Positions 1,851 through 37,934 of a stretch of DNA of 37,934 bases are shown in pieces. Every line of letters begins with the position of its first letter. The first letter of the stretch is position 1. Source of the stretch: a bacterium UBP10_UBA1149 (GTDB taxonomy: Bacteria; Desulfobacterota; Binatia; UBA1149); NCBI GenBank assembly GCA_002311335.1, contig DBZX01000015.1, positions 106,430 through 144,363 on the forward strand, read 5' to 3'. A program made the position numbers and the translations under genes. Under the pieces are notes generated by a model. It worked only from the letters and a program-made list of their open reading frames with translations. It made no database searches and had not been told where the DNA came from.

Positions 1851-1856
1851 GTCGGC

Positions 1857-3658: not shown

Positions 3659-3663
3659 GGCAG

Positions 3664-12485: not shown

Positions 12486-12508
12486 GCCGACTCCACGAGT
12501 TAAGCAAG

Positions 12509-13702
12509 GTGAGTAAGGGTGGGCAGGTATGGGCCGGGTTGGAGTCGCTGGTCGAAGAGGCCATGGGCCGGGGCGTGAGTCCGGGCGTGGTGCTGCTTGT
12601 AGGCCGGGGCGAAGACGTAATTTACCAGCGCGGCTGGGGTCGCCTGGGACTGGGCGAGAACCCCGACGTAGACAGCGCGGTTATACCCGCTACGCGTTTT
12701 GACGTGGCCTCACTGAGCAAGCCCCTGGCGACGTTTGCCTCGCTTGTGTTGCTAATGGCAGAGGGGCACTTGCTGCTGGGCCAGCCGGTGGCCGATTTTT
12801 TTCCAGGCTTTGGCGGCGTGGGACCCTTTGCCGGTGCGGGAGCAGGTGGAACTTCGGTCACCGTCAGCCAGCTGCTCACCCACAGTTCGGGCTTGCCCGA
12901 CTGGGTGCCGTATTTCAAGGCCCCGGAATTTGCCGCGGCCGGGCCGCAGCCGTTCACCTTCGACAAGCGTCGTCGCAGCCGCCTCGTGGCCGAGGTCGCC
13001 CGCCAGCCGTTGGTGTACGAACCCGGCAGCGAGTCGCGCTACAGCGATCTCGGTTTCATACTGCTGGGTGACATCGTAGAGCAGATCTCCGGCGAGGGTC
13101 TCGACGAGTTTATCACCTCGAGGCTGCTGCAACCGCTTGGCACGGGGGCTGGTTTCCGTCGTCCGGGCTCAGGCGTCCGGGGGCAGCCCGACGCCGAGTT
13201 AGCTCCCTGTGGAATCTGCGGGTGGCGGCAGCGGCTGGTGCAGGGGCAGGTGCAGGACGAGAACGCCTGGCTTATGGGCGGGGTGGCCGGGCACGCGGGA
13301 TTGTTTGCCTCGGCCCGGGACATCCACCTGTTGGCCGCTGAGCACGAGGCCGCGCTGGCTGGCAAGTCAACGCTGCTCGACGGCCGGCTGCTGCGCCACC
13401 TGCTCGACGCCGAGCCGTCGGTGCCTGGCTCGACCTGGCTGCCCGGCTGGGACACGCCCACGCCAGGCGCCTCGACGGCCGGCAGCCTGGTCGGCGCGCG
13501 CGCGCTCGGGCACCTGGGCTACACCGGTAGCTCGCTTTGGATAGACCGCGACCGGGGGGTGCACGTGGTGCTGCTCAGCAACCGCGTTCATCCCCACACT
13601 GGCAACCGCGGCATCGCTGCGCTCAGGCCGGCGGTGCACGACGCAGTGTTCGAGTGCGTTGATTCGCTGTCTCGACAGCGGTCACGCAAGCGTGCAGACT
13701 GA
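12509..13702 (+). CDS. Serine hydrolase of the beta-lactamase/penicillin-binding fold (class C-like)
   Basis: 397 aa. SxxK motif (ASLSKP), YSD (YxN-like) and HAG (KTG-like) in the expected order. GTG start. Confidence 0.8.
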   Translation: MSKGGQVWAGLESLVEEAMGRGVSPGVVLLVGRGEDVIYQRGWGRLGLGENPDVDSAVIPATRFDVASLSKPLATFASLVLLMAEGHLLLGQPVADFFPGFGGVGPFAGAGAGGTSVTVSQLLTHSSGLPDWVPYFKAPEFAAAGPQPFTFDKRRRSRLVAEVARQPLVYEPGSESRYSDLGFILLGDIVEQISGEGLDEFITSRLLQPLGTGAGFRRPGSGVRGQPDAELAPCGICGWRQRLVQGQVQDENAWLMGGVAGHAGLFASARDIHLLAAEHEAALAGKSTLLDGRLLRHLLDAEPSVPGSTWLPGWDTPTPGASTAGSLVGARALGHLGYTGSSLWIDRDRGVHVVLLSNRVHPHTGNRGIAALRPAVHDAVFECVDSLSRQRSRKRAD

Positions 13703-13709
13703 ACGGGTC

Positions 13710-15128
13710 GTGGCAGGCAAATCACAACACGTACATCTCGTGGCTGTATGCGGCGTCGGCATGGCGCCGCTGGCCGTCATGCTCAAGCAGTCGGGCTACA
13801 CAGTGAGCGGCTCCGACAAGGCTTCCTATCCGCCCATGGGGCAGGTGCTGGCCGACGCCGGCATAGAGATACTCGAAGGTTTTTCGCCCGACCATCTTGA
13901 CCCCCTGCCCGACGTGGTAGTTATCGGCAACGCGGTGTCGGCCAGCAACCCCGAGGCCGCGGAGGTCGAGCGCCTGGGGCTGCCGCGCCTGTCATTCCCC
14001 GAGGCGGTGGCCCGCTACTTCCTGCGCGATCGGCGTAGCCTGGTGGTGGCCGGTACGCACGGCAAGACAACCACCACCGGCATGCTGGCGCGCGTGCTCG
14101 AGGTCGCCGGCGAGGACCCCGGCTACCTGGTGGGCGGCCTGGTGCGCGACCTCAAAGGCTTGGCGCGGGCGGGCCGGGCGGGCGCCTGGTTTGCCATCGA
14201 GGGCGACGAGTACGACTCGGCCTACTTCGACAAGGGCCCCAAGTTTGTTCACTACCAGCCGGCGGCGAGCATAATCACCAGCGTTGAGTTCGACCACGCT
14301 GACATCTACCGCGACGTGGAGCACGTCAAGAGTTCCTTTGCGCGCCTGGTCGAGTTGCTGCCCGAAGGCGCCCCGCTGGTGGTTTGCGGCGACTATCCCC
14401 ACCTGCTCGACCTGCTTGGTTCGTCGCCGCGGCCGGGCTTGATCAGTTACGGTTGCGGCGACAACAACCAGTGGAGGCCCACAGAACTCGAGCACGGTTC
14501 GGCCGGCAGTTCGTTCCGACCGTCGCTTGAAGGTGAGCTGGGCCCGCGCTTGCAGCTGCGGCTTCACGGCAGCATCAACGTGCTCAACGCGCTGGCGGTG
14601 TTTGTGCTTTCGAGACAGCTCGGTATATCCGACGCCGCCGTGGCCGAAGCCCTGGCGGGGTACCGGGGTGCCGCCAGGAGGCAGGAGCTGGTGGGCAGTG
14701 CTGCGGGCGTGGACGTGATCGATGATTTTGCCCATCACCCCACCGCGGTTGCCGGCAGCCTGGCTGCCATGGCCGACGCGTACAACGGGCGCAGGGTGTG
14801 GGCGGTGTTCGAACCGCGCTCCAACACCAGCCGCAGGTCGGTCTTCCAGGCTCGCTATACCGAGGCCCTGGCCCTGGCCGACCGAGTCGTCCTGAGCGAG
14901 GTGTTCCACAAGGAGAACGATACCCTGGCCGAGGGCGAAGCGCTCGACACCGAGGCCGTGGTTGAGGAGCTGAACAGCACGGGCACCCCGGCCTGGCAGG
15001 CCGACGGTCCCGACGTCATACTCGACCGCCTGCCGGGCGAGCTCAAAGCGGGCGACGTGGTGCTGTGCATGTCCAACGGCGCTTTTGGAGATCTTCCGCG
15101 CCGCCTGCTGGCCGCTCTCGGCGGCTGA
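13710..15128 (+). CDS. mpl: UDP-N-acetylmuramate:L-alanyl-gamma-D-glutamyl-meso-diaminopimelate ligase (murein peptide ligase)
   Basis: HVHLVAVCGVGMAPLA..L...GY.VSGSD...YPPM aligns with the Mpl N-terminus, and GTHGKTTTT is the Mur-ligase P-loop. I prefer GTG 13710, just after the upstream stop. The track start TTG 13659 overlaps the previous gene by 44 nt. Confidence 0.85.
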   Translation: MAGKSQHVHLVAVCGVGMAPLAVMLKQSGYTVSGSDKASYPPMGQVLADAGIEILEGFSPDHLDPLPDVVVIGNAVSASNPEAAEVERLGLPRLSFPEAVARYFLRDRRSLVVAGTHGKTTTTGMLARVLEVAGEDPGYLVGGLVRDLKGLARAGRAGAWFAIEGDEYDSAYFDKGPKFVHYQPAASIITSVEFDHADIYRDVEHVKSSFARLVELLPEGAPLVVCGDYPHLLDLLGSSPRPGLISYGCGDNNQWRPTELEHGSAGSSFRPSLEGELGPRLQLRLHGSINVLNALAVFVLSRQLGISDAAVAEALAGYRGAARRQELVGSAAGVDVIDDFAHHPTAVAGSLAAMADAYNGRRVWAVFEPRSNTSRRSVFQARYTEALALADRVVLSEVFHKENDTLAEGEALDTEAVVEELNSTGTPAWQADGPDVILDRLPGELKAGDVVLCMSNGAFGDLPRRLLAALGG

Positions 15129-15134
15129 ACTGTT

Positions 15135-17288
15135 CTATTTTCCGGCAGCGCTGTCGCCGCTGGAGCCATACACGCGCTCGAAATTGCGAGCGTTGCGGAG
15201 AACCTTTTTCACGTAGCCACGGGTCTCGCGGTAGGAAATTCTTTCGATGAACTCATCCTCGTCGAGGCCGTCCAGCCGGTCGAACCAGCGTTGCGCCGCG
15301 TTCTCGCCCGCGTTGTAACCGGCCAGCATGAGGACGGGGTTGTCGTTGAAGCGCCGCGCGAGCGAGGCGAGGTAAGCCGTGCCCAGCGCGATGTTGACGT
15401 CGGGCACGAAGAGGTCGTCGCGCGAAGGCTCTGCCCGGTCCGTCGCCCTGGCCACCCGCCTGGCGGTGGGCAAGAGCAGTTGCATCAACCCGTAGGCAGC
15501 GGCCGGCGAGGTGGCGTGCGCGTCAAAAACGCTTTCCTGTTTCATCAGCGCGTAGACCAGCGAGGGGCGGATCTTCCAGCGACCCGCTTCGCGCCCCACG
15601 ATGTCGGCATGGGCCCTGGGGTAGAGAAACGGGTACAGCTGGGCATCGTTGAGCAGGCCCTTGCGATAGAGCTGCAGTGCCACGCGCAGGCTGCTGTTCC
15701 AGGCACCCGACGCGGCCAGCTGCGGCAACAGGGCCAGCAGTTGCTCGCTGCTGCGGCCGCTCGTCAGCCGAGCGGTTTCGGTGGCCCCGTGGTGGCCCAG
15801 GCCGGCGATTCTCAGTGCTTCCGCCCGCGCCAGTGTGCGCCGTGCAGAGGCGTCAAGCGTGACCGTTGAGCGTGGAAGATTTTCGACCGTGGCCGCGGGC
15901 GCCCTGAGCGGGAGCCGTTGCTCGACCAGCCAGGAATAAAAGCCGTCGGGAAACTCGGCCAGCAGCTGCCGGTAGACGGCCAGGGCCTCGTTGCTGGTCT
16001 TGCCAGCCGCGCGTTCAATGGAGCGGGCTTTCCAGTACAGGGCGCCTTCGCGTCCACTCGGGCTGGAGGGCCTGCTGACTCCTGACCCACGGGCCGGTGG
16101 CTTGGTGGCCTGCACGATGAGACCGAACTTCCACGCCGCGCCAGGGTAGTTGCCCGCCCGGTACGAGGCCCAGCCGGCCCGCCACGCGGACTCACTGCGG
16201 ATGTGCTGGTCAGGGCTTTTTTCGGCCGAGCGATAGTGGGCGGCCGCGCTGTTGTAGCGGCGGGCCGACTCATGGATGCGGCCCGAGGCGTAGTGGGCTT
16301 TGTGCTCTTCGTCCAGCCCCGACCCCAGCGACAGAAATTTTTCGAAGCGTTGCAGGGCCAGCGTCGACTGGTTCGCGTTCCAGCTGTACACCGCCGACTC
16401 GTACAGCAGTCGCGCCGACCGGCCCGGGTCGCTTTCGCCCGCAGATTTCTGCGACAGCCACCAGGCAGCCGCCTGCTTATCTTTCAGGGCCGCGGTCGAG
16501 CGGGCCCGGCCGAGAATCGAAGTCGTGCGCGATGGGTGGCGCGGAAAGTCCTTGAGCAGCTTGTCCAGCATCGCTACGCGTTGGCTGTGCCTGCCCTCGG
16601 CACCCAGCAGCCGGGTCTCGGCCACCAGCTGCTCGGCGCTGGTCGGCAACAGTTTCGGGTTGTCGCTTTGCAGATCGGATGCCAGCTCGGCGGCCGGCCT
16701 GCCCGATTGACCGCCGGGGTCTCTTGCCCTGGCGCGGTTGGCCAGCTCGAGCGAACGCCGGGGGTCCGAGGCCTGCAGGCGGCGCGCAGCCGCCACCGCG
16801 ATGGCCGCAAAATCGGCGTTGAGGGTGGTTCCGCCGCGGTACTTTTCGGCCAGCTCGAGTACGCGGGCATCTGCTGTTTCCGGCAGGCCAACCAGCAGCG
16901 CTGCGCTGGCGGGCGCCACCGGCGAGTCGGGTACCAGCGCCAGCAGCTTCTCGAGTTCGGCGGCAGCCGCAGTTTTTTCATCGGCGGCCGCTTCGGCGCT
17001 CAAGCCGGTAGCAGCGAGCCTGCTGCGGGCCAGGAAGTAGAGCACGTAGTCCTGCAGCAGGGCGAAGTCGTTTTTCAGGGTGAGCAGGGTGCGCCGGGCC
17101 AGGGCCGGGTCGTTGTCCCCGCTGGCTGACAGGGCCGTCACCGCAGATCCCAGCCGGGCGGCGTGGGTGGCGTCGGATCTGCCGAGCAGGGATTTTTCGG
17201 GTGCCGCCAGGGCGCTGCAGGCGGTAACGGCCGGGGCCAGCAGTGTGGCTGTAAGCAGGAAGGAAAGCGCTCTAACTCTGGTCAGCAC
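15135..17288 (-). CDS. slt: Soluble lytic murein transglycosylase (Slt70-like)
   Basis: 717 aa. Signal peptide, a long alpha-superhelical N-terminal region, and a C-terminal SLT domain with MKQESVF (catalytic Glu-Ser), AYGLMQL and AGYNAG. Confidence 0.85.
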   Translation of the reverse strand: MLTRVRALSFLLTATLLAPAVTACSALAAPEKSLLGRSDATHAARLGSAVTALSASGDNDPALARRTLLTLKNDFALLQDYVLYFLARSRLAATGLSAEAAADEKTAAAAELEKLLALVPDSPVAPASAALLVGLPETADARVLELAEKYRGGTTLNADFAAIAVAAARRLQASDPRRSLELANRARARDPGGQSGRPAAELASDLQSDNPKLLPTSAEQLVAETRLLGAEGRHSQRVAMLDKLLKDFPRHPSRTTSILGRARSTAALKDKQAAAWWLSQKSAGESDPGRSARLLYESAVYSWNANQSTLALQRFEKFLSLGSGLDEEHKAHYASGRIHESARRYNSAAAHYRSAEKSPDQHIRSESAWRAGWASYRAGNYPGAAWKFGLIVQATKPPARGSGVSRPSSPSGREGALYWKARSIERAAGKTSNEALAVYRQLLAEFPDGFYSWLVEQRLPLRAPAATVENLPRSTVTLDASARRTLARAEALRIAGLGHHGATETARLTSGRSSEQLLALLPQLAASGAWNSSLRVALQLYRKGLLNDAQLYPFLYPRAHADIVGREAGRWKIRPSLVYALMKQESVFDAHATSPAAAYGLMQLLLPTARRVARATDRAEPSRDDLFVPDVNIALGTAYLASLARRFNDNPVLMLAGYNAGENAAQRWFDRLDGLDEDEFIERISYRETRGYVKKVLRNARNFERVYGSSGDSAAGK

Positions 17289-26638: not shown

Positions 26639-28012
26639 TCAGCCCGCGGTCACCGATACGTTTTCGATTCTCACCGAGGGCACGAGCGCCGAGCTGCTGA
26701 TCAACCTGCGCTCGGACGAGAGCGCGCTTATGTCGCGCAGGGCCTCGAACAGGTTTCCGGCTATCATGGTTTCGCGTATCGGCCGGCGCTGTCCGTTCTC
26801 GACCAGGAAGCCGTTCTTGACCACGCCCGAAAAGTCTCCCGTCACCGCGTTGGTGCTGCCTGAAAAACGGTTGACGAGTACGACGGGGCCGCCGTTGCTC
26901 GCCAGCAGATCGCTTTCTTCACCGGCGGCCAGCTCGATGTAGCTCGGGCCGATACCCGGGGGCGATGACGCCGACCCCGCGGCGTGGCCGGTCGAGCGGG
27001 CGTTGCCACCGGCGAGGGTCGCTTCGTGCTGGTTAAACAGGAAGGTGCGCAGCCGGCCGCCTTCGATGATGGTAGTTTTTGCCGTCGCCACGCCTTCGCG
27101 ATCAAAGGGGCTCGAGGTCACCATCGAGTCGACGGTCGCGTCGTCGACCAGGTTGAAAGCCTCGCAGGCCACGAGCTGCTCGAGCTTGTCGGCCAGGGGG
27201 CTGCGGCCCTTGCGGACGGTGTCGGCGCACAGCGCCCCCATCAGGTTTGACAGAAGGAACTCGGCAACGGCTTCGGGAGACAGCACAACGGGGCCGCGGT
27301 AACTAAGGCCCTTACCGGCGCCCAGCCCGGCCACGCACTTGTCGGTAAAGCGATCTGCCGTCTTGAGCAACGCCGCTTCGAAGCCGTCCAGCCTGCAGCT
27401 CGACTCGCTGTCGTAGTCAAAGCTGGCAATGTCTTCTCCGTCCACCGCCATGCCGAACAGGGATCCGCCGGCCATCGTAGTGGATTTTTCTTTCTCGATT
27501 CCCAGCGAGTTGACGAGGGCGCTGCGCTCGATCGAGAAGCTCACCGACCCCGAGTCGATGGTGACGCGCGGGTCGCGCGACTTGACCGCTTCGGCCAGAG
27601 TCGCGGCGAGGCGGCTGGAGTCGGACACTGTCATTTTTTCGATCGCCGGGTCGTAAAGGCCCTCGATGGTAGTGCTGTCACCCGGGGGTGCGAAGGCGTT
27701 GGCCTCGTCGGCCGGGATGACCGAAGCCTGCTCGAGCGCTTCTTTTACGCTGTCGGCCAGGCGTCGCTCCGATACGTCGTTGGCGGTGACGAAGGCCTTC
27801 GAGCCCTGGCTTATTACCCTGAGCCCGAACACGGTTTCCTCGCGGGACTGAACGGTGTGCACCTCGCCCGACTCAATGTTGGTTTCTACCCCGCGGCCGC
27901 TTTCGACCATGGCTTCGGCCTGTTCGGCGCCGGCGTCAATGGCCATGTCGACCAGTTGTTTGCAGATCTCCAGCGGATCCCGGGGCGAAACACTCCCCCC
28001 TGTCGAGCTCAC
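26639..28012 (-). CDS. pmbA: TldD/PmbA-family metalloprotease subunit (PmbA/TldE-like)
   Basis: About 457 aa, a paralogue of the upstream TldD without HExxxH. GTG 28012 overlaps the tldD stop (GTGA). The track start at 28039 overlaps by 31 nt. Confidence 0.85.
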   Translation of the reverse strand: MSSTGGSVSPRDPLEICKQLVDMAIDAGAEQAEAMVESGRGVETNIESGEVHTVQSREETVFGLRVISQGSKAFVTANDVSERRLADSVKEALEQASVIPADEANAFAPPGDSTTIEGLYDPAIEKMTVSDSSRLAATLAEAVKSRDPRVTIDSGSVSFSIERSALVNSLGIEKEKSTTMAGGSLFGMAVDGEDIASFDYDSESSCRLDGFEAALLKTADRFTDKCVAGLGAGKGLSYRGPVVLSPEAVAEFLLSNLMGALCADTVRKGRSPLADKLEQLVACEAFNLVDDATVDSMVTSSPFDREGVATAKTTIIEGGRLRTFLFNQHEATLAGGNARSTGHAAGSASSPPGIGPSYIELAAGEESDLLASNGGPVVLVNRFSGSTNAVTGDFSGVVKNGFLVENGQRRPIRETMIAGNLFEALRDISALSSERRLISSSALVPSVRIENVSVTAG

Positions 28013-29412
28013 TGCTCGCCCCCGAGCAGGGCCTTGCATCTAATGTAGGGTCCGCCTGCGTCAACCTTGGCCGGCTGCCCCTTGCCGCAGTATCCCGACC
28101 CGAGGTCCCAGCGAAAACTGTCCGACACGCTATCCACCGTTGAAAGCACGTCGAAGGCGATACCGGTCACTGTGACTCCCTTGACCAGCGCCCCGAGTTT
28201 GCCGTCCTTGATCTCGCGCGCTTCCTGCACGCCGAACATGAACTCGCCGGTGGCGTCGGCCTGGCCGTTGCGAGGGCCGTCGAGGAGGTAGCCGTGGCTC
28301 GTGCTCGCGATCATCTCTTCGAGGCTGGTCTGCCCGGGCTCGAGGTAGGTGTTGCGCATTCTTATGAGCGGTTCGTTGGCGTATTCCCAGGCCCTGGCGT
28401 TGCCCGTGGGCGCGACACCGTAGCGCGCCGCGCTCTCGCGGTTGTGGAGGTAGGACTCAAGTATGCCGTCGCGGATGATGACCGTGCGACCGGCGAGCAC
28501 GCCCTCGTCGTCCACGGGTATGGTGCCGCCGGCGCCGTCTTCGAGTTCCGAAGCGCCACTGTCGCACAGCGTGACCAGGTCGCTGGCCACGCGCTGGCCC
28601 AGCTTCCCGGCCGCCACCGATCCTGCTTGCACGAAGTCGGCTTCGACAGTGTGGCCGATGGCCTCGTGCACCAGCAGCCCCACTATCGAGGGCGCCAGGA
28701 TGACCGAGGCGCGGCCGCCCTGCGGGTGCCCGGCCGACAGCAGGTCAACCGCGGTGCGCGCCGCCTTGCTGGCAAAGTACTCGCCGTCGCCGTGGCGAAA
28801 CAGGCACTCCCAGCCACCGGTAGTGCCAATCGCTTCGAAGCCGGTCGACATCTCTCCGTTTCTTTCGGCCACCGCCTGCAGGCGCAGCTCGGGTCGCACC
28901 AGGCGAAAACTCGCAGCTGCCCCGTCGGTAGTGACGATGGCTTTTTCTTCAAAAATTTCCGAGTAGCCGCAGGTAGCAGACGAAACCGACGATGAAGAAC
29001 TACGCACGGTTTCTTCGAGCTTGCGGGCCATGCCGACTTTTTCTTCGAGCGAGCGTTGCTCTATCTCGTCGACTCCCGGTTGGCTGAAGTCACCGGTGGC
29101 GAGCTTGACCTCGGGAAGGTCGGCTACGGCCTCGCTTCGCAGCGAGGCGCCCGAGCGCGCGGCGGCCCGCGCCGACTCGATGGCTCGCTTGACGTCGGCG
29201 GGTTCTGAACTTCCGGTGGAGGCGAATCCCCAGGCGCCGTTCTCGAGCACGCGCACCCCCAGCCCGGCAACCGAGCGCGAGCTGCTGCTTTCGACCTTAC
29301 CCTTTTCTACGACCACACCGCGGGAGGTCTTGGCGTGGTATCTCAGCTCAACGAAGCCACCTGCCGAGGCGGCGGCCTGCTTGAGGGTCTCCATTACTTC
29401 AGCGGCGGACAT
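28009..29412 (-). CDS. tldD: Metalloprotease TldD
   Basis: 467 aa. HEAIGHTVEADF (HExxxH) and a C-terminal GYCGKGQ motif. Confidence 0.9.
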   Translation of the reverse strand: MSAAEVMETLKQAAASAGGFVELRYHAKTSRGVVVEKGKVESSSSRSVAGLGVRVLENGAWGFASTGSSEPADVKRAIESARAAARSGASLRSEAVADLPEVKLATGDFSQPGVDEIEQRSLEEKVGMARKLEETVRSSSSSVSSATCGYSEIFEEKAIVTTDGAAASFRLVRPELRLQAVAERNGEMSTGFEAIGTTGGWECLFRHGDGEYFASKAARTAVDLLSAGHPQGGRASVILAPSIVGLLVHEAIGHTVEADFVQAGSVAAGKLGQRVASDLVTLCDSGASELEDGAGGTIPVDDEGVLAGRTVIIRDGILESYLHNRESAARYGVAPTGNARAWEYANEPLIRMRNTYLEPGQTSLEEMIASTSHGYLLDGPRNGQADATGEFMFGVQEAREIKDGKLGALVKGVTVTGIAFDVLSTVDSVSDSFRWDLGSGYCGKGQPAKVDAGGPYIRCKALLGGEQ

Positions 29413-29843: not shown

Positions 29844-30593
29844 GTGCACCGGGTAGTGCCTTGCGCGCTTTTGCGCGCTCGGTTGGTGTACCGAGTGATA
29901 AGTTTGAACAAGTACAAGGTGTTGCGTGCGCAGAGCGCGGCGCTGCCGGTGGCCGCGCTGGCCTGCGCGCTGCTCGTCATTCCCTCGTTTTCGGGTGCCG
30001 CTTCGCTTCCGGAGGGACCACGCCAGGGCGTCGCAGCGGAGGCGAGCCGACGGCCGAGCAGCCAGCAGCTCAACAGGCTGGACCGGCTCGAGCCCCTGAT
30101 TCGCTACTTCACCTCCTTGTCTTACGGTCCCGACGACGCGCGCGTGAACGGCGACTACATTCGCGCCTTGATACTCACCGAGTCGGGCGCCAACATACGC
30201 GCCCGCTCGCGCAAGGGTGCAAGGGGCCTGACGCAGATCATGCCGTCCACGGCGAGGTGGGCCGTGGCTCACCTCGCCCGCGAAAACTACGACTACCTGT
30301 ACGTAGACGAGGGCGTGTTCAAGGATTTCGTGGCCGACGATCTTTACCATCCGGGCTTGAACGTATTGTTGGCCTGCTACCTCAACGCCACTTACAACCA
30401 GCGTTTTGATGGACAGATTGAGTTGATGGCCGCGGCCTGGAATGCCGGGCCCGGGGCGGTGCGGCGCTATGGAAACCAGCCGCCCCCTTACCCCGAAACA
30501 CTTACCCTGATCAGGCGAGTGCTGGGATACATAGATTTCTTCACGGCTACCGTCGGCGTTAATCCCGCATCACCCGGGCTGGCTCTCAAGTAG
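29844..30593 (+). CDS. Lytic transglycosylase (SLT domain) with signal peptide
   Basis: ALILTESGAN (catalytic Glu-Ser), ARGLTQIMPSTA, AAWNAGPG. There is a hydrophobic leader ALPVAALACALLVIPSFSGAAS. The start is uncertain (GTG 29844, TTG 29904 or GTG 29919). Confidence 0.8.
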   Translation: MHRVVPCALLRARLVYRVISLNKYKVLRAQSAALPVAALACALLVIPSFSGAASLPEGPRQGVAAEASRRPSSQQLNRLDRLEPLIRYFTSLSYGPDDARVNGDYIRALILTESGANIRARSRKGARGLTQIMPSTARWAVAHLARENYDYLYVDEGVFKDFVADDLYHPGLNVLLACYLNATYNQRFDGQIELMAAAWNAGPGAVRRYGNQPPPYPETLTLIRRVLGYIDFFTATVGVNPASPGLALK

Positions 30594-30612
30594 CCAGCTC
30601 TCAAGTAGCCAG
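30583..30612. repeat. Perfect 15-nt tandem duplication (CTCTCAAGTAGCCAG x2) spanning the stop codon of the SLT gene, with a degenerate third copy to 30627
   Basis: Read directly: 30583-30597 equals 30598-30612. Each copy carries an in-frame TAG. Confidence 0.9.
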
Positions 30613-30648
30613 CTACAGCGTAGCCGGCCGGCCTGCGGGGTCGGCGGT

Positions 30649-30828
30649 CTAGTGAAGGGTGCGTACGCGCTCGTTGCTGGCGCCGGCCACCGAAGCGTCG
30701 TTGTGCGAGCGCTCCCTGGCGAAGGGCAGCAGGGTCTCCATTACCCAGGAACCTTTTACGCGCTTGCCGGTGAAAACCACCCGTGAAGAAGACCTCTTTG
30801 AATCACTTTTCTCGTTACGCTTTGCCAT
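30649..30828 (-). CDS. Small basic hypothetical protein, 59 aa (below the ORF-track cut-off)
   Basis: Hand translation gives MAKRNEKSDSKRSSSRVVFTGKRVKGSWVMETLLPFARERSHNDASVAGASNERVRTLH. The ATG is preceded by GGGAGGAAAAACGAGC (strong SD) and by a sigma-54-like element. The listed 82-aa + strand ORF here looks like a shadow. Confidence 0.45.
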   Translation of the reverse strand: MAKRNEKSDSKRSSSRVVFTGKRVKGSWVMETLLPFARERSHNDASVAGASNERVRTLH

Positions 30829-30865
30829 GCTCGTTTTTCCTCCCGAAAGACTGTGGGTGGATAAA

Positions 30866-30881
30866 AGCAGGGCTCGTGCCA
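30866..30881 (-). promoter_or_regulatory. Sigma-54-like promoter element (TGGCAC-N5-CTGC) upstream of the 59-aa ORF
   Basis: Minus strand TGGCACGAGCCCTGCT has GG and GC separated by 10 nt, with 38 nt between the GC and the ATG. The -12 box is CTGC rather than TTGC, and a chance match is possible. Confidence 0.35.
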
Positions 30882-30996
30882 GCGTCGTGGCAGGCAGTCA
30901 AAAATAGTTAAGTTGTTGAAATTGCAGGAGAAGCGACCTCGCAGGCGCCATGGCAAAGGGCACGGCAATGAACCGCGCGGTACAGGATTGTCCGCT

Positions 30997-31773
30997 TCAG
31001 CGGCCTTTGAACTGAGGGCGGCGTTTTTCGAGGAAGGCGGTCACGCCCTCGGCGTAGTCCTCGCTCTGAAAACAGCGCGAGACAAGCTCGTTGACCTCGT
31101 CGGGCGATATGCGGCCGACTCTGCGCGAGGCCTGTTTTGAGTAGGCCAGCGCGAGGGGAGCGTTTGATGCTACCTGGGCAGCCATTTTCCTGGTGGTTTC
31201 TTCGAGCTCGTCCGAGCTTACACAGCGGTGCAGCATTCCCATGCGCAGCGCTTCTTCGCCTTGCACGAAGCGGCCGGTGAGCAGCAGGTCCAGCGTCGTG
31301 GCCTCTCCGAGCAGGGCCAGCAGCCGCTCGAGCGCGTGGTGCGGGTAGGCCAGGCCGAGGCGGCCGGCCGGGATGCCCATGCTTACGTCCTGCGCGGCTA
31401 TCCTGAGATCGCAGCCGAAGGCCAACAGGCAGCCACCTCCTATACAGGGCCCGCCCAGCATGGCGATTGTGGGGACCGAGAGCTTCTCAAGCGCTGCGAG
31501 CGTGTCGCGGCTTCCCTCGTCGTAGCGCCGCGCTTCTTCGGGGTCTGAACGCAGGGCGCGGAACTCGGTTATGTCGGCCCCGGCAACAAAGTTACCCTCT
31601 GTGCCCGTCACCACGATCACCCGCACTTCTTCGTGCGAGGCCAGGTCTTGTAGCAAAGCGGGAAACGCCTGCCACATGTCTCGGGTCATGGCTCCGCGGC
31701 TCTGCGGGCGGTCAATTTTGAGCCAGCCAACGGCGCCGTCTATCGAGCTCTTCAGTTCTTCGGTGCTGTTCAC
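30997..31773 (-). CDS. Enoyl-CoA hydratase/isomerase family protein (crotonase fold)
   Basis: 258 aa. FVAGADITEF and GGPCIGGGCLLAFGCDLRIA oxyanion-hole motifs. Confidence 0.9.
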   Translation of the reverse strand: MNSTEELKSSIDGAVGWLKIDRPQSRGAMTRDMWQAFPALLQDLASHEEVRVIVVTGTEGNFVAGADITEFRALRSDPEEARRYDEGSRDTLAALEKLSVPTIAMLGGPCIGGGCLLAFGCDLRIAAQDVSMGIPAGRLGLAYPHHALERLLALLGEATTLDLLLTGRFVQGEEALRMGMLHRCVSSDELEETTRKMAAQVASNAPLALAYSKQASRRVGRISPDEVNELVSRCFQSEDYAEGVTAFLEKRRPQFKGR

Positions 31774-31864
31774 GCTGACAACTGTATAACGCTGCCAGGG
31801 TTTTGGTGGAAGTCAGGGCTGAAAAGGCCAGCCGTAGAGGGGGGTAGGGCCTGTTCCGGGGGGG

Positions 31865-32047
31865 TTATTTCAGGGGGAGGCTGGCGTTGGCAAAGGTTCC
31901 CGAAAGCTTGACCTTGCCCGAGTTGATGAGCTTGAGAGCCGTCGATATCAGGGTTCCCTCGGTGCAGCGACCGTGGCTTTCGTCCTCGATCGTGACGAGC
32001 AGGTCGAGCAGGGTTATCTTTCGGACGGTCTTGTCAGTCGAAGCCAT
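31865..32047 (-). CDS. Hypothetical 60-aa protein
   Basis: ORF from ATG 32047 (MASTDKTVRKITLLDLL...). No clear SD and no recognised family. The region has lower GC than its surroundings. Confidence 0.3.
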   Translation of the reverse strand: MASTDKTVRKITLLDLLVTIEDESHGRCTEGTLISTALKLINSGKVKLSGTFANASLPLK

Positions 32048-32195
32048 GCCCGGGCTGAAGCAAAATGCTTGCCTGATGAAAAGCAGCAAAAAAGGCCTGT
32101 AAATGGGGGGTCTAGAGATTCAGGGATGCAAGGGCCGGACGTAAGCGCGCAGTACTGCACGAAAACGTAGACCCGGGGGAGGCCGCTGGCCAGCC

Positions 32196-33158
32196 TCAGC
32201 GATGTCGGCGCGTTGTAGGGTCGAGGCTGGCCGGTTCGACGTGGACTACCACGTCGGTCACCGCGGGGTAGCTCTGTTTTATCCTGTCCTCGATTTCCTC
32301 GGTGACGTGGTGCGATCGGAGTACACTCATGTCGTCGGGCAGGTAGAGCTGCAGGTCAACGTAGATGTCGCTGCCGTTGCTGCGCGAGCGAACCGCGTGC
32401 ATGCGGCCCATGGCCCGGTTGTTCTCGAACAGGGCGGCTATGTCCTCGCTGGGTATGGGAGCCGCGTCGGACAGTACGGCCAGCGCGTCGCGCATGATGA
32501 CGTAAGCCGTGCGCGCTATCAGGGCACCGATGCCAACTGCTACCAGGACGTCGAGGCCCGGGTAGCCCAGGCGTACGGCGGCCAGCGATCCTATTACCGC
32601 CAGCGATGCGTATACGTCCGAGCGCGTGTGGGCCGCGTCGGCCTTGAGCACCCGGCTGTTGAGCCGCTCACCGGCAGAGTGTTCCCAGCGGGTTACGGCG
32701 ATGTTGACGAGCAGGGTCGCGATCATGACGGCAAACGCCAGCGGGCTCGCTGTGGGGACAGATCCGCTGCGCGACCTGTCCAGCGCCGCGCCCAGCACTT
32801 CCCAGGCCGCCAGCACCAGGAAACCGGCGATGACCAGTGCCGCCACTACCTCGTATCGGCGATGCCCGTAGTGGTGGTCCGCGTCGGGCGGCCGCGCAGC
32901 CGCGGTCACGCCCAGTATGCCGACCACGGTGGCCAGGCTGTCGAACAGCGAGTGGTAGCCGTCGGCCAGGATGGCGATGCTGGCCGTCATCGTCCCGGTC
33001 ACCAGCTTGGCAATCGCGACCGACAGGTTGAGCACCAGCACGGCCGAGAGCACCCCGGTGGCACCGGTACGCCTCCCGGAAAGCGCCCCGGGCTTGTCGC
33101 TGTTGCGGCTTTCGGAGGCCATGAAGGGCATCATGTCAGCGAGAGGGGCAGATTCCAA
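32196..33158 (-). CDS. Cation diffusion facilitator (CDF) family divalent-metal efflux transporter
   Basis: Six predicted TMs. ADGYHSLFDSLA (TM2 HxxxD) and AHTRSDVYAS (TM5 HxxxD), plus a C-terminal cytoplasmic domain. Confidence 0.88.
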   Translation of the reverse strand: MESAPLADMMPFMASESRNSDKPGALSGRRTGATGVLSAVLVLNLSVAIAKLVTGTMTASIAILADGYHSLFDSLATVVGILGVTAAARPPDADHHYGHRRYEVVAALVIAGFLVLAAWEVLGAALDRSRSGSVPTASPLAFAVMIATLLVNIAVTRWEHSAGERLNSRVLKADAAHTRSDVYASLAVIGSLAAVRLGYPGLDVLVAVGIGALIARTAYVIMRDALAVLSDAAPIPSEDIAALFENNRAMGRMHAVRSRSNGSDIYVDLQLYLPDDMSVLRSHHVTEEIEDRIKQSYPAVTDVVVHVEPASLDPTTRRHR

Positions 33159-33261
33159 CGTAGCCTGCGGCCGGTCGCCCCTTATCGTGCATGGCTTGTT
33201 ACCTTGACGAAAAGTTGGTACTCAATGTCGATAAGCCGTTCCCCGGGGCGGTTACGCGTAT

Positions 33262-33507
33262 ATGGGTAAAGACGGTATAGAGGTAGACGGGACGGTCAAA
33301 GAGAACCTCCCGAACGCATTTTTCAAGGTGGAGCTGGAGAACGGCCACACCGTGCTCGCCCATATTTCGGGTAAGATGCGTAAGTACTATATCCGTATCC
33401 TTCCAGGCGATGCAGTCAAGGTGGAGCTGTCGCCCTATGATCTGACCAGGGGTCGGATAATCTGGCGAGAGAAAACGCCCCCCCGCACGCCTCGCAAGCG
33501 GCGCTAG
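33262..33507 (+). CDS. infA: Translation initiation factor IF-1 (with a short basic C-terminal extension)
   Basis: [65 protein letters not shown] is canonical IF-1. Confidence 0.96.
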
Positions 33508-33523
33508 CCGGGGTGGCCGCCGC

Positions 33524-33599
33524 TGGGGAGTGGCCAAATTGGTAAGGCACCTGATTCTGGTTCAGGCAACTGAAGGTTCGAGTCCTTCCTCCCCAGCCA
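33524..33599 (+). tRNA. tRNA-Gln (anticodon CUG), CCA encoded
   Basis: Hand-folded cloverleaf: acceptor TGGGGAG/CTCCCCA, anticodon stem CCTGA/TCAGG with loop TTCTGGT, T arm GAAGG-TTCGAGT-CCTTC, discriminator G plus CCA. The overall sequence is very close to E. coli tRNA-Gln as I remember it. Confidence 0.93.
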
Positions 33600-33660
33600 T
33601 TTTCGTCCACTGACTTTCCTGCTTTTTCGAGCTCCTGCCCGCCCGGCCGTAGTGTCTTCC

Positions 33661-33680
33661 CGCCGGGATTTTCCCCGGCG
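33661..33680 (+). terminator. Hairpin downstream of infA/tRNA-Gln (possible terminator or processing signal)
   Basis: Perfect 7-bp stem CGCCGGG/CCCGGCG with a 6-nt loop. The following sequence TTCACAAATGTTCGTTT is only moderately T-rich. Confidence 0.3.
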
Positions 33681-33756
33681 TTCACAAATGTTCGTTTACC
33701 GGGTCGAGTGAAGCATCGCGGTCAACGCTGCCGCTGTTGTTGCGGGTGCAGGCTTC

Positions 33757-33773
33757 TGGCACGTCCATTGCTC
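33757..33773 (+). promoter_or_regulatory. Sigma-54 (RpoN) promoter, copy 1
   Basis: TGGCACGTCCATTGCTC matches TGGCAC-N5-TTGC exactly. It lies 55 nt upstream of ATG 33826, and an identical 17-mer precedes the next gene. Confidence 0.75.
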
Positions 33774-33825
33774 ATGCAGCAGCGGGTAGTTGGGCTCGAG
33801 CCCAGGCAGACCCGGGGGAAGTCTT

Positions 33826-34728
33826 ATGGGCGACCAGTTTTCAGACGGGGATTCACAACTTTCAACAGGTTACGAGCCCGCGGTGCAATCGCCGGTGGCG
33901 ATACTGCGCTGGTCCGGGTTCGTCCTGGGGCTGGTGGCGGTTGTGGCGGCTGTGGCCGCGGTCATGCCATCCAACGGCGAGCTGCAGCTCCGGGCAGGAG
34001 AGTCGGCGCAGACCGTAGGCATGCTTGAAAGCCTGGGCGGTACGGTCGCCGTAGTGCCGGTCAACGCGCTTTGCGGTAACGCCCAGTTGGATGAGGGCGA
34101 GGCCTGCGACGACGGTAACCTTTCCAACTCGGACAAGTGCCTGGCTAATTGCAAGCTGCAGAGCTGCGGAGACGGATTTATCCACGTTGGCTTTGAGCAG
34201 TGTGACGACGGAAATTCTGACGACGCCGACAGTTGCCTGGGCAGCTGTCGCAGTGCTCGCTGTGGCGACGGCTTTGTCCAGGCCGATGTTGAGAGCTGCG
34301 ACGACGGCAACGCTGACAACACAGACGCCTGTCTGGATAGCTGCGAGACTGCTTCCTGCGGCGATGGTTTTGTGCAGGCCGATGTAGAGAGCTGCGACGA
34401 CGGCAACGCTGACAACACAGACGCCTGCCTCTCGAGCTGCGAGGCCGCGCCGGCCGAGTTGCCCGAGCTGTATACGCAGGCCGAGGACCTGGACCTTGCC
34501 GATTTCAGTCTGCAACTGGGTGCGTTCACTTCGCTGGCCAATGCCGAGGAGTTCATGGAAGCAGCTGCCCAGGTAGTACCTGGCGTGCGTGTGAGCCGGA
34601 CCGAAAGGAACGGCAAGTCCTTGTACCGGGTCGTCCTGGGACGCTACCCGACCGCCGGGCAGGCGGAGGTCATACAGCACACGCTGGCCATGGCAGGCAT
34701 GGGCTCGCTTTTGAAGGTTCGGCGCTAG
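33826..34728 (+). CDS. Bitopic membrane protein: TM helix, four Myxococcus-type cysteine-rich repeats, C-terminal SPOR peptidoglycan-binding domain
   Basis: ATG 33826 is preceded by GGGGGAAG. TM WSGFVLGLVAVVAAVAAVM. Repeats CG[ND]G..6-8..C-DDGN....D.C...C at 34072-34452. The C-terminus FSLQLGAFTSLANAEEF....G.SLYRVVLGRYPTAGQAE..... fits the SPOR consensus (34501-34722). Confidence 0.85.
   Translation: MGDQFSDGDSQLSTGYEPAVQSPVAILRWSGFVLGLVAVVAAVAAVMPSNGELQLRAGESAQTVGMLESLGGTVAVVPVNALCGNAQLDEGEACDDGNLSNSDKCLANCKLQSCGDGFIHVGFEQCDDGNSDDADSCLGSCRSARCGDGFVQADVESCDDGNADNTDACLDSCETASCGDGFVQADVESCDDGNADNTDACLSSCEAAPAELPELYTQAEDLDLADFSLQLGAFTSLANAEEFMEAAAQVVPGVRVSRTERNGKSLYRVVLGRYPTAGQAEVIQHTLAMAGMGSLLKVRR
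34261..34452 (+). repeat. 96-nt in-frame tandem duplication (two cysteine-rich repeat units)
   Basis: 34261-34356 versus 34357-34452 shows 15 differences in 96 nt by hand count. The first 24 codons encode identical peptides (CGDGFVQADVESCDDGNADNTDAC), with 6 differences that are all synonymous. Confidence 0.9.
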
Positions 34729-34740
34729 CCTGCCGCCCAG

Positions 34741-34772
34741 CCCCCTGCTGTTCATAAATGTCCAGCAAGGGG
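34741..34772 (+). other. Intergenic hairpin 13 nt after the stop of the SPOR gene
   Basis: CCCCCTGCTG / CAGCAAGGGG gives a 10-bp stem with one mismatch and a 12-nt AT-rich loop, TTCATAAATGTC. There is no T-tract, so it is not a classical terminator. Confidence 0.5.
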
Positions 34773-34893
34773 AGTCGTTGAACCGCTGTCGATAGCTCTT
34801 CAGCCTGCCACCAGCCTGTAAAACCGCCCCGATAACAAGTCTTTACGGCACATAGCCCAGCTTCCGGCGCTCCCTCTTTTCCAGCTCATACGG

Positions 34894-34910
34894 TGGCACG
34901 TCCATTGCTC
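34894..34910 (+). promoter_or_regulatory. Sigma-54 (RpoN) promoter, copy 2
   Basis: The identical 17-mer TGGCACGTCCATTGCTC, 57 nt upstream of ATG 34965. Confidence 0.75.
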
Positions 34911-34964
34911 TTGCAACTATGGGTATTTGGCCCTGACATGGGCCAATCCAGGGAGACCAGGGGA

Positions 34965-37934
34965 ATGGATGACAGAATTTTTGATATGAACTCAAAGCCT
35001 TTTTGCAACGATCGGCCAGACGAGAGCTGCTTCGATAGCGCTAACACTCGTGAGGCGGTGGCTTCGTTGCTGCACGGAATACGGTCGCGCAAGGGCTTTA
35101 TCACTCTCGTGGGTGACCAGGGAACCGGCAAGACGTCGCTGCTGCAGCGCGTCGCCGACGAGCTCGAGGGCGAGGCCGAGGTCGTATGCGTGTTCGACGC
35201 GGGGCTCGGCTTCGACGAACTGCTCGAGTACCTCTGCGTCCAGCTGGGCCTGGACACCGACGACAGCCGCCGCATGAGCCTGCTCGACAAGCTGAACGCC
35301 TACCTGCTCGATTCGCTCGTAGAGGGCGGCAACGTCGTAGTCATAATCGACGATGCTCACCTGATCGATGAGAGGCTGCTCGAAGAACTTCGCCTGCTCA
35401 CCAACCTCGAAACTTCCACAGAGAAAATACTGCAGATCGTCCTGTGCGGAGAGCGCTCTCTCGAAACCAAGCTCAAGCGCCACTCGCTTCGGCAGGTAAG
35501 GCAGCGCGTAGGCATGCGAGCAGTTCTCGAACCTCTGGCCAAGGACGACGTCGTTGATTACATCGACTCTCGCCTGGCCCCCTGGGAAGCGAGAGCCGAA
35601 GACATTTTCAGTGGTGGTGCTATTCGCCGTCTTTCCGGCGGCCGCAAGCCCACTCCCGCCAGCGTGAACAGCCTGGCCGCGAGAGCCATGGAGATCGCCC
35701 TGGAGAAAGGGCTGCCCCTGGTGCCAGCTTCTTGCATTCGAAAAGCCGAGGCCGAACAGCGACGCACTCTCAGGGGCGAGGGCTCAGGATCTACCGCTGC
35801 CGCTCTGCGGTGGACGGGATACGGTGGCGCGGCTTTCGCAGCTGCTGCGGTGGCCGTGCTGCTGACCAACAACTGGCAGGGCAGTGTTACGAACGTAGTG
35901 GCCCCTGGAGCTGAGCCCGTGCCGAGCTACTCGAACTCGGTGCAGCTGGCACTCGACGAACTTCAAAGCCAGAGCGAACTGGCCGACAGCGCGCTTGCCG
36001 AGGTTTCCAAGGCGAAAACCACCAGTGAAACGGCCGCTGCCAAGACCGTGGTCAGCGAGGAGGGGTTGGCTGATAGCTTGCAAGCCACGGTGCTTGTTGC
36101 AGCCGTGGCGCCTGTGCAAGCCGACGTCGTGGCGGCCGCCTCGTTGGTAGAAAACCATACTGCGGATAGCGCTTCGGTAGAAAGCGATCCGACAGGCGAT
36201 CACTCGGTGGACAACATCCTGGCGGATGATGCCTCGGTGGTAGTCGTTCTGGCCGGCGACCTGTGTGGGAACGGCGAATTGGACGAGGGCGAAGAATGTG
36301 ACGACGGCAACCCGTCGAACTCCGATGCCTGCCTGGTGACCTGTGAGCTCCGCAGTTGCGGCGACGGTTTCGTGCACTCTGGTTTCGAAGAGTGCGACGA
36401 CGCGAACTCGAACAACAGCGACGAATGTCTCAACAACTGTCGCAAGGCTCGTTGTGGAGACGGGCAGGTCCTGGCTTCCCTTGAGGAGTGCGATGATGGC
36501 AAGGCTAACAGCAACTCGACGGCGGACTCCTGCAGGGTAGACTGCCGTTTACCCTTTTGCGGTGACGGAGTGGTGGATGGCGACGAAGCCTGCGATGACG
36601 GCAACGCCAACAATAACGACACCTGTCTCGACAGTTGCGTGACCGCGGTTTGCGGCGATGGTTTTATACAGGTCGACGTAGAGCAGTGTGACGCGGGTGC
36701 AGACAACGACGACGGCACGGCCGACGTTTGTCGTACCGATTGCAGTCTGCCTTCCTGCGGCGACGGCGTGGCCGATTCCGGCGAGATCTGCGACGACGGA
36801 AACAGCTCTAACCAGGACGGTTGCATTGAAGATTGCACTCTCCCGGTTTGCGGCGACGGCTACTTGTTCGTGGGCATGGAAGAATGCGACGAGGGCGACC
36901 GGAACAGTACCAGGCTTCCCAATGTCTGCAGGACGGATTGCACGAGGCCTTCCTGCGGCGATGGCGTGGTCGACACCGGCGAATCCTGTGACGACGGAAA
37001 CAGTGACAACAGCGACGCCTGCCTTGACGACTGCCGCGTGGCTTCATGCGGAGACAGCGTGGTGCAGGCGGGCGTAGAAGAATGCGACTCCGGGGGCTTC
37101 AACAGCGACTTGCTCCCCGGCAGTTGTCGGAGCGATTGCGTTCTGCCCACCTGTGGTGACGGCGTGGTCGATTCGGGCGAGGCTTGCGACGACGGCAACG
37201 CCGACGACAGTGACTCCTGCCTGGCCAACTGCGTCTCGGCCACTTGCGGTGATGGGGTTGTATCCGTTGGCGTGGAGTCCTGTGACGGCGGAGACGCCAA
37301 CAGTGATATTGTTGCCGGTGCTTGCCGTAACGACTGTTCGTTGCCCTCCTGTGGTGACGGAGTTGTCGACGCGGGCGAGAGCTGCGACGACGGCAATATT
37401 TCGAACGATGACAGCTGCACGGCAAAATGTGAGCATGCGTTCTGCGGCGACGGCTTCGTACAGGTTGGTGTAGAGACCTGCGACGCGGGCATCGGGAACG
37501 GCAACCGGATCGGCGATCTTTGTCGTACGGACTGCCGCGTAGCTTCCTGCGGTGATGGAACTGTCGATGCCGGCGAGAGCTGCGACGACGGCAATATTTC
37601 AAACGATGATAGCTGCACAGCGAAATGTGAGCATGCGTTCTGCGGCGACGGCTTTGTGCAGGTGGGAGTCGAGGCTTGCGACGCGGGCCCGGCCAATAGT
37701 GATGTAACGGCTGATAGCTGCCGCGGCGATTGCACGGTGGCCAGCTGCGGTGACGGGATGGTTGACGCGGGCGAGGCCTGCGACGATGGCAACGCCGACA
37801 ACAGCGATGCCTGCCTGGCCAGCTGCGAGGCGGCGGCCTGCGGTGACGGTTTCGTTCAGCTTGACGTAGAGGCTTGCGACGCGGGCCTGGCCAACAGCGA
37901 TGTTGCGGCAGATAGCTGCCGCGGCGATTGCACG
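34965..37934 (+). CDS. Partial CDS (3' end outside the window): ExeA/GspA-like AAA+ ATPase, TM segment, linker, then at least 17 Myxococcus-type cysteine-rich repeats
   Basis: Hand translation of + frame 3 gives 990 codons without a stop from ATG 34965 to the last base, with the upstream in-frame stop TAA at 34833. GGGAGA lies 8 nt before the ATG; an in-frame ATG at 34938 is the alternative start. Walker A GDQGTGKT (35112-35135), Walker B VVVIIDDAH, and LRLLTNLETSTEKILQIVLCGERSLE are typical of ExeA/MshM ATPases. Hydrophobic segment at 35820-35867. Repeats from 36264. It is not in the ORF track because it has no stop. Confidence 0.88.
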   Translation, partial: MDDRIFDMNSKPFCNDRPDESCFDSANTREAVASLLHGIRSRKGFITLVGDQGTGKTSLLQRVADELEGEAEVVCVFDAGLGFDELLEYLCVQLGLDTDDSRRMSLLDKLNAYLLDSLVEGGNVVVIIDDAHLIDERLLEELRLLTNLETSTEKILQIVLCGERSLETKLKRHSLRQVRQRVGMRAVLEPLAKDDVVDYIDSRLAPWEARAEDIFSGGAIRRLSGGRKPTPASVNSLAARAMEIALEKGLPLVPASCIRKAEAEQRRTLRGEGSGSTAAALRWTGYGGAAFAAAAVAVLLTNNWQGSVTNVVAPGAEPVPSYSNSVQLALDELQSQSELADSALAEVSKAKTTSETAAAKTVVSEEGLADSLQATVLVAAVAPVQADVVAAASLVENHTADSASVESDPTGDHSVDNILADDASVVVVLAGDLCGNGELDEGEECDDGNPSNSDACLVTCELRSCGDGFVHSGFEECDDANSNNSDECLNNCRKARCGDGQVLASLEECDDGKANSNSTADSCRVDCRLPFCGDGVVDGDEACDDGNANNNDTCLDSCVTAVCGDGFIQVDVEQCDAGADNDDGTADVCRTDCSLPSCGDGVADSGEICDDGNSSNQDGCIEDCTLPVCGDGYLFVGMEECDEGDRNSTRLPNVCRTDCTRPSCGDGVVDTGESCDDGNSDNSDACLDDCRVASCGDSVVQAGVEECDSGGFNSDLLPGSCRSDCVLPTCGDGVVDSGEACDDGNADDSDSCLANCVSATCGDGVVSVGVESCDGGDANSDIVAGACRNDCSLPSCGDGVVDAGESCDDGNISNDDSCTAKCEHAFCGDGFVQVGVETCDAGIGNGNRIGDLCRTDCRVASCGDGTVDAGESCDDGNISNDDSCTAKCEHAFCGDGFVQVGVEACDAGPANSDVTADSCRGDCTVASCGDGMVDAGEACDDGNADNSDACLASCEAAACGDGFVQLDVEACDAGLANSDVAADSCRGDCT
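36558..37934 (+). repeat. In-frame 198-nt super-repeat (31-aa A unit + 35-aa B unit), 7 copies, the last cut by the window edge
   Basis: The Cys codon of each CGDG opening an A unit falls at 36558, 36756, 36954, 37152, 37350, 37548 and 37746, exactly 198 nt apart. The copies at 37350 and 37548 are the most similar. Confidence 0.9.

Follow-up and report, generated by a model that had tools for sequence, protein, structure and literature searches.

Sigma-54 (RpoN) promoters have a -24/-12 consensus, TGGCAC-N5-TTGCW, of which the glnAp2, nifH and pspA promoters are examples. Two copies of such an element, here called P1 and P2, are considered in this report: the same 17 nt, TGGCACGTCCATTGCTC, occur at 33757-33773 and again at 34894-34910, both on the + strand of a 37,934-nt stretch of DNA (the window; contig DBZX01000015.1 of assembly GCA_002311335.1, positions 106,430 to 144,363) from UBP10_UBA1149, a bacterium of an uncultured deep-sea lineage related to the Binatia. 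Each copy stands in front of a gene for a protein with cysteine-rich repeats (gene 1 and gene 2). As cis elements, P1 and P2 show no difference from known sigma-54 promoters: both boxes match, the GG-N10-GC arrangement is kept, and they likewise lie in intergenic DNA, 50-70 nt before a start codon and without predicted sigma-70 hexamers. Orthologous loci of the ATPase encoded by gene 2 also encode NtrC-type activators. The two 17-mers are probably functional sigma-54 dependent promoters of separate transcription units, with an NtrC-type activator gene in another part of the genome. We infer from the sequence that sigma-54 binds, where transcription starts, that an activator is needed and that gene 1 and gene 2 are co-regulated. 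A literature search found no work on sigma-54 in this uncultured Binatia-related lineage.

The described system that comes closest is the PrsK/PrsR PEP-CTERM regulon, which consists of single-gene exported or envelope units that all have a 17-nt sigma-54 motif of their own, at an average of 71 nt before the start codon, together with an upstream activator motif and exopolysaccharide (EPS) loci that contain a related ATPase (Haft et al., 2006; PMC1569441). The window likewise has single-gene envelope units with their own promoters, and the ATPase of gene 2 is most like TIGR03015 (XrtA/PEP-CTERM-associated ATPase), its best curated model. However, there are multiple distinguishing characteristics. 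First, gene 1 lacks a PEP-CTERM signal and ends in a SPOR domain instead. Second, the gene-2 ATPase scores 154 bits, against a TIGR03015 cutoff of 324.5, and the activator at one orthologous locus (L120) scores 377 against a cutoff of 502.6 for TIGR02915 (PrsR), no better than against AtoC/NtrC models. Third, the hallmark of PrsR motif 1, TTTACA, is not convincing in the window: TTTACC and TTTACG are present, and the copy at P1 is not conserved in relatives. Membership in the PrsR/PEP-CTERM regulon is not supported, given the missing PEP-CTERM signal of gene 1 and the sub-cutoff scores of the ATPase and the orthologue activators. A second point of comparison is the ExeA/GspA ATPases, which consist of an AAA_22 domain, a transmembrane (TM) segment and a periplasmic peptidoglycan-binding part. 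Gene 2 shares the N-terminal AAA_22 domain followed by a TM segment, but its extracytoplasmic part is a giant array of DUF4215 repeats instead, and the peptidoglycan-binding SPOR domain is found on the separate paralogue, gene 1.

Placement and conservation of the two elements

The window contains no further copy of TGGCACGTCCATTGCTC, even when 3 mismatches are allowed, and a search of both strands for perfect TGGCAC-N5-TTGC returns two sites in 37.9 kb, P1 and P2. Shuffles that preserve dinucleotide composition gave a mean of 0.14 perfect sites, and none of 100 gave two. In both elements the GG and GC are 10 nt apart, which is the obligatory spacing. Both are intergenic and point in the same direction as the gene that follows: the ATG at 33826 lies 55 nt past the C of the GC at -12 (P1) and the ATG at 34965 lies 57 nt past it (P2), or 69 and 71 nt when counted from the first T of the 17-mer. 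Purine-rich tracts resembling Shine-Dalgarno (SD) sequences precede the two start codons (GGGGGAAG at 33814-33821 for gene 1, GGGAGA at 34951-34956 for gene 2). The original prediction, made from the window alone, had described this arrangement, and its copies, spacings, distances and purine tracts were all reproduced; its choice of start codons also holds up, as gene callers at JGI, NCBI and ENA picked the same two ATGs independently in 8 related contigs. When all sites in the window were ranked by a simple weighted consensus score (maximum 22), P1 and P2 came first with 22/22, followed by a site on the minus strand at 30881-30865 with 21/22, a threshold at which 0.14 sites are expected from shuffles. 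All three are intergenic and aimed at an ATG 53-71 nt away. A scan of 33200-35200 predicted no sigma-70-like promoter and gave no convincing terminator.

The pattern of substitution in close relatives points in the same direction. These relatives are 93-99% identical in amino acid sequence and comprise 16 loci with P1 and 15 with P2, drawn from the NIOZ-UU50 metagenome-assembled genome (MAG), the Guaymas plume and other marine metagenomes; infA and the first open reading frame (ORF) of the window served as probes for related contigs. Across the two promoters, none of the 20 consensus columns varies among relatives, as against 3/14 of the other promoter columns, 14/106 leader columns (7/52 for gene 1 and 7/54 for gene 2) and 132/322 (41%) in the upstream intergenic DNA. 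P2 is unchanged in all 15 loci. P1 occurs in four versions, with GTCCA, GCCCA or GTCCG as spacer and TTGCTC or TTGCTG as the end, and every change falls at a non-consensus position (8, 11 or 17 of the element). It follows that P1 and P2 are not identical to each other in most relatives, with one non-consensus base setting them apart.

More distant relatives provide a third line of evidence, and the strongest one. A metagenome scan with an alignment of the ATPase returned almost exclusively the 93-99% relatives, and the distant orthologues came through protein searches and contig look-ups. Apart from near-identical copies, the ATPase domain has its nearest relatives, at 41-49% identity, in Binatia-type genomes. 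In all 21 distant loci examined (L120-L123 and 17 more) a TGGCAY-N5-TTGCT site heads the ATPase gene or its operon. In L121 (49% identity) it is TGGCATGAGGGTTGCT, 94 nt before the ATPase ATG, and the adjoining upstream gene encodes a sigma-54 enhancer-binding protein (EBP); in L122 (48%) it is TGGCATGGAGATTGCT, 89 nt before the ATG. In L120 (47%) and L123 (45%) a gene for an NtrC-type response regulator/EBP precedes that of the ATPase by 19-97 nt, within an operon for a small coiled-coil protein, a histidine kinase (HK)-like protein, the EBP and the ATPase that is headed by TGGCATGTCTTTTGCT or TGGCATTGGAATTGCT. With the small protein as probe, 17 more loci with the same operon were found (L127-L143, in MAGs labelled Binatia, "delta proteobacterium" or Polyangiaceae), and in 17/17 the site lies 45-145 nt before the first gene of the operon. 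Only one site of equal score exists elsewhere in the roughly 150 kb of these loci. Where the sequence reaches far enough, there is a second sigma-54 site before a NusG/RfaH-like gene beside EPS genes. The coiled-coil protein has 91-101 aa, the HK-like protein is soluble, and in L123 (operon at 1121-5446) the ATPase carries LysM. L120, L121, L123 and the Binatia loci have a gene for an NtrC-type activator (Response_reg and Sigma54_activat domains) directly before that of the ATPase orthologue.

Because the intergenic DNA of these orthologues cannot be aligned with that of the window, the recurrence of the site is independent evidence of sigma-54 control, and such control appears to be conserved for this ExeA-like ATPase family across Binatia-type bacteria. 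The arrangement at gene 2 resembles the Binatia-type operon in its orthologous ATPase and in its promoter, but here the ATPase gene stands apart from the two-component genes, under a promoter of its own, and continues into cysteine-rich repeats as a fusion. The 41% orthologue in L126, which lies in a Wza-Wzz EPS operon, has no sigma-54 site in the readable part of its locus; sigma-54 control is thus documented for the closest subfamily and not for all ExeA-like ATPases. Weak sites before relatives of 25-32% identity in L097 and L111 (TGGAAC.., TGGAAG..) were left out of the evidence. GroEL of the window shares 75-79% identity with that of Binatia-type MAGs and about 70% with all others, which places the source organism near the clade with activator-linked loci. 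That clade presumably has rpoN, to judge from the Sigma54_activat genes of the Binatia-type loci.

Common origin of the two units

The two 17-mers share more than their own letters. Although the 60 nt on their 5′ side are unrelated (global alignment z=0.2), the local match between P1 and P2 extends into the 3′ flank to cover 37 nt at 84% identity. The leaders, which fill the space between 17-mer and ATG, are identical at 29/54 positions (z=4.0), and the first 60 coding nucleotides of gene 1 and gene 2 at 32/61 (z=3.9). In relatives, both proteins open with MDD(Q/R).F.D, and the two genes also share their repeats and a similar TM segment. Since homology begins at the promoter, spans the 5′ untranslated region (UTR) and reaches into the first 20 or so codons of the genes, the promoters were duplicated together with the paralogous gene starts. 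On this alignment the units of gene 1 and gene 2 are descendants of one promoter, leader and gene start, and gene 1 looks like a copy without the ATPase domain and with a SPOR domain. The original prediction had held that the flanks differ and that no large duplication was involved. The first statement is correct on the 5′ side and fails on the 3′ side; the second does not stand, as promoter, 5′ UTR and about 20 codons were duplicated as a block.

The duplication also changes how the identity of the two promoters can be read. The leaders have drifted to about 54% identity since the event, while the promoter still agrees at 17/17 positions; by our arithmetic, the chance of such agreement at 54% per base is about 3e-5, and the contrast with the flanks speaks for constraint on the promoter. 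The identical spacer, in turn, is inherited and not selected, because the duplication covers promoter, 5′ UTR and first codons. It had been argued from the identical core at conserved spacing that selection acts on the promoter. That argument survives for the consensus bases, which are invariant in relatives, and is lost for the spacer; selection is thus visible at the consensus bases only.

Activator, upstream elements and competing explanations

Sigma-54 promoters require an activator, and the window encodes none, as had been predicted: six-frame translation contains neither GAFTGA nor the Walker signature GE(S/T)G(T/S/V)GK, and Sigma54_activat has no match among the large window ORFs that were scanned. 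A near-identical contig (L144) extends the sequence 10 kb to the left of the window and also has no sigma-54 activator there. Upstream of the promoters there are candidate activator sites, both tentative. For P1 the candidate, at 33673-33713 (+) and about 77 nt upstream, reads CCCCGGC-GTTCACAAATGT ... N22 ... GTGAA and gave the highest-ranking match when the two upstream regions were aligned locally; for P2 it lies at 34742-34783 (+), about 144 nt upstream, reads CCCCTGCTGTTCATAAATGT ... N22 ... TTGAAC and has the same half-site geometry. The shared AT-rich element can be written as CCCC(G/T)GC(T)GTTCAYAAATGT with (G/T)TGAA 22 nt further on, at -77 and -144, and it is nearly invariant in relatives. 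Matches to the consensus of integration host factor (IHF) were poor when judged by eye. The Binatia loci have, about 90 nt upstream of the promoter, a palindrome resembling an upstream activator site, TCGTGC-N6-GCACGA, which is absent from the upstream regions in the window.

Several of these observations weigh against reading P1 and P2 as sigma-54 promoters under common control. The identity of the two elements is in part inherited through the duplication; in close relatives, conservation of the leaders comes near that of the promoters; neither the window nor the 10 kb to its left holds an activator gene; and the shared upstream element is marginal (53/1000 shuffles match as well, p~0.05) and unlike the palindrome of the Binatia loci. 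The prediction that both genes are switched on together is accordingly left with the upstream element as a weak indication, and a single activator serving both promoters is at best hinted at by it.

Given that leader conservation approaches that of the promoter, part of it could reflect constraint at the RNA level. A fuller version of this idea is that the conserved block is mainly an operator for another DNA-binding protein, or a structured 5′ leader that is transcribed from further upstream and controls stability or translation. The gene-1 leader (33774-33825, +) contains a conserved GGGTAGTTGG block ahead of its SD-like tract, and the homologous gene-2 leader (34911-34964, +) contains GGGTATTTGG and a tract that can be read as GGGAGA or AGGGGA. 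Conservation extends over the entire leaders and includes GGGTA(G/T)TTGG at 33784-33793 and 34921-34930, which would be +2 to +11 of both transcripts, and GGGTTGGG recurs at the equivalent place just after the promoters of the distant orthologues L122 (~1720) and L143 (~4881). Similar nested hairpins are predicted in both leaders, and an 81-nt region at P2 folds with z=-3.5. However, the leaders alone give only z=-1.2 (gene 1) and -1.1 (gene 2), relatives show no clear compensatory changes, and leader RNA structure was set aside on these grounds. An Rfam scan of 30400-35400 matched tRNA-Gln and no other family, and the distant orthologues keep the -24/-12 pattern and not the leader. Moreover, an RNA element and a promoter are compatible, so that an RNA role would add to promoter function and not replace it. 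As a substitute for the promoter, an operator or leader element is unlikely.

The duplication could also be turned into an explanation of its own, in which the pair of 17-mers is the best-kept remnant of a tandem duplication, perhaps homogenized by gene conversion, that is not a promoter at all, and the genes are transcribed from unrecognised promoters or by read-through. The homology that runs past the 17-mer into leader and first codons, and the repeats and TM segment that the two genes have in common, are what such a history would leave behind. Yet the -26 edge of the element is precisely where the homology sets in, with none upstream; the supposed remnant is a perfect sigma-54 consensus; and substitutions in relatives avoid exactly the ten consensus bases. 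Gene conversion also cannot explain why orthologous loci that are unalignable with the window carry the same kind of site. A remnant without promoter function is quite improbable.

That a consensus-like 17-mer arose twice by chance is barely credible: the exact 17-mer has 94 hits in a 596-Gb genome collection, near the ~70 that we calculate for random sequence, but no shuffle of the window gave two perfect sites, and both sites are intergenic, co-oriented, equidistant from their starts and conserved at orthologous positions in every relative. The 94 hits are single and fall in unrelated phyla, with only one relative among them (L054, the same as L095); the exact 17-mer is itself no widespread element, and its distribution is uninformative about a regulon.

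RpoN-type promoters of two adjacent genes, as originally predicted, are what placement and rarity, the substitution pattern, the sites of distant orthologues and their neighbouring activator genes all favour. In the mechanism that would follow, sigma-54 holoenzyme would form a closed complex at the GG (-24) and GC (-12) of both promoters, to be remodelled by an enhancer-binding ATPase of the NtrC type whose gene lies in another part of the genome; only upon remodelling would transcription start, near 33783 from P1 and near 34920 from P2. The outcome would be tightly switched production of a SPOR-anchored cysteine-repeat protein and of an ExeA-like ATPase/cysteine-repeat giant. The promoters offer a firm way into the regulation of two envelope genes about which little else is known, in a deep-sea lineage that is uncultured: the prediction is that gene 1 and gene 2 stay silent as long as no enhancer-binding ATPase has responded to its signal, and their start-codon assignments gain support. 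They also suggest that sigma-54 control was kept even where the ATPase gene left its two-component regulators and joined a giant repeat region. The cis elements are standard RpoN promoters; the locus would be a well-supported but ordinary example of a known gene switch and adds nothing new to the principles of gene regulation. A wider proposal is tentative: a sigma-54 regulon devoted to an apparatus of the envelope or surface that has not been described before, made of an ExeA-like ATPase/cysteine-repeat fusion of several thousand residues and its SPOR-anchored paralogue, under a distant activator and with the GGGTANTTGG leader hairpin as a post-transcriptional layer. The site at 30881-30865 and the GTTCAYAAATGT element might mark further members.

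The two genes and their surroundings

Gene 1 (33826-34728, +) encodes a 300-aa bitopic envelope protein whose start is shared with relatives. A short N-terminal tail is followed by one TM helix, four cysteine-rich acidic DUF4215/TIGR02232 repeats (Pfam DUF4215, 7e-17; TIGR02232, 4e-23) and a C-terminal SPOR domain, which is peptidoglycan-binding (1.6e-10); the protein ends in ...AMAGMGSLLKVRR. A look-up of the exact protein returned no record. In relatives the called length of gene 1 ranges over 179-428 aa, with about 95 aa in L095 (1541-1828, in our translation). Gene 2 (34965-37934, +) is cut by the end of the window. It encodes an ExeA/GspA-like ATPase in aa 1 to ~260, with AAA_22 (1.9e-21) at aa 40-170, a Walker A motif GTGKT and a Walker B motif IIDDAH, then a hydrophobic segment at about aa 283-303 and a long DUF4215 array (1e-49). 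Repeats of this kind in each of the two proteins agree with the original description of both genes as cysteine-repeat genes. The ATPase has 2606 homologues at E<=1e-10, mostly named general secretion pathway protein A or ExeA. No peptidoglycan-binding domain was seen in gene 2, where the 990 visible aa contain only DUF4215 repeats in this part and the C-terminus lies beyond the window. In L112 (12402-20246) the product of gene 2 has at least 1526 aa, and the repeats resume past a probable assembly frame break at 16982, to exceed 3000 aa. Genes with these cysteine-rich repeats vary extremely in length and disrupt assemblies, and several contigs of the lineage end within them.

Upstream of gene 1 lie infA and tRNA-Gln. 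An indel of about 32-34 nt (CGCCCGGCCGTAGTGTCTTCCCGCCGGGATTTT) at 33639-33672 separates tRNA-Gln from the upstream element of P1; the window and L104 have it, as do L114-L117 according to promoter offsets, and it is missing from the other relatives. A tRNA-linked island was considered and rejected, as the 10-mers common to the tRNA-Gln/infA end and the gene-1 end occur about as often as chance. The remaining genes of the window are housekeeping genes, among them those for an Opp transporter, GroEL, murein recycling enzymes, a hydantoinase and TldD/PmbA. Murein-related genes recur in this neighbourhood: there are two SLT lytic transglycosylases, an LD-carboxypeptidase, a Mpl-like Mur ligase and a beta-lactamase-fold protein, as well as the TldD/PmbA pair (together at 26639-29412 (-), 15135-17288 (-), 29844-30593 (+) and 11562-15128 (+)). 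Alongside the SPOR protein, they hint at a cell-wall theme.

The third-ranked site of the window, TGGCACGAGCCCTGCTT at 30865-30881 (-), is a possible third sigma-54 type promoter, intergenic and correctly oriented, with 53 nt between it and a conserved ORF of 59 aa downstream (MAKRNEKSDSKRSSS..., 30828-30649 (-)) that has a GGGAGG SD sequence and no Pfam hit. The site is conserved in relatives, where only CTGC/ATGC varies, and about 35 nt upstream of it lies an AT-rich, IHF-like stretch, TTTCAACAACTTA.

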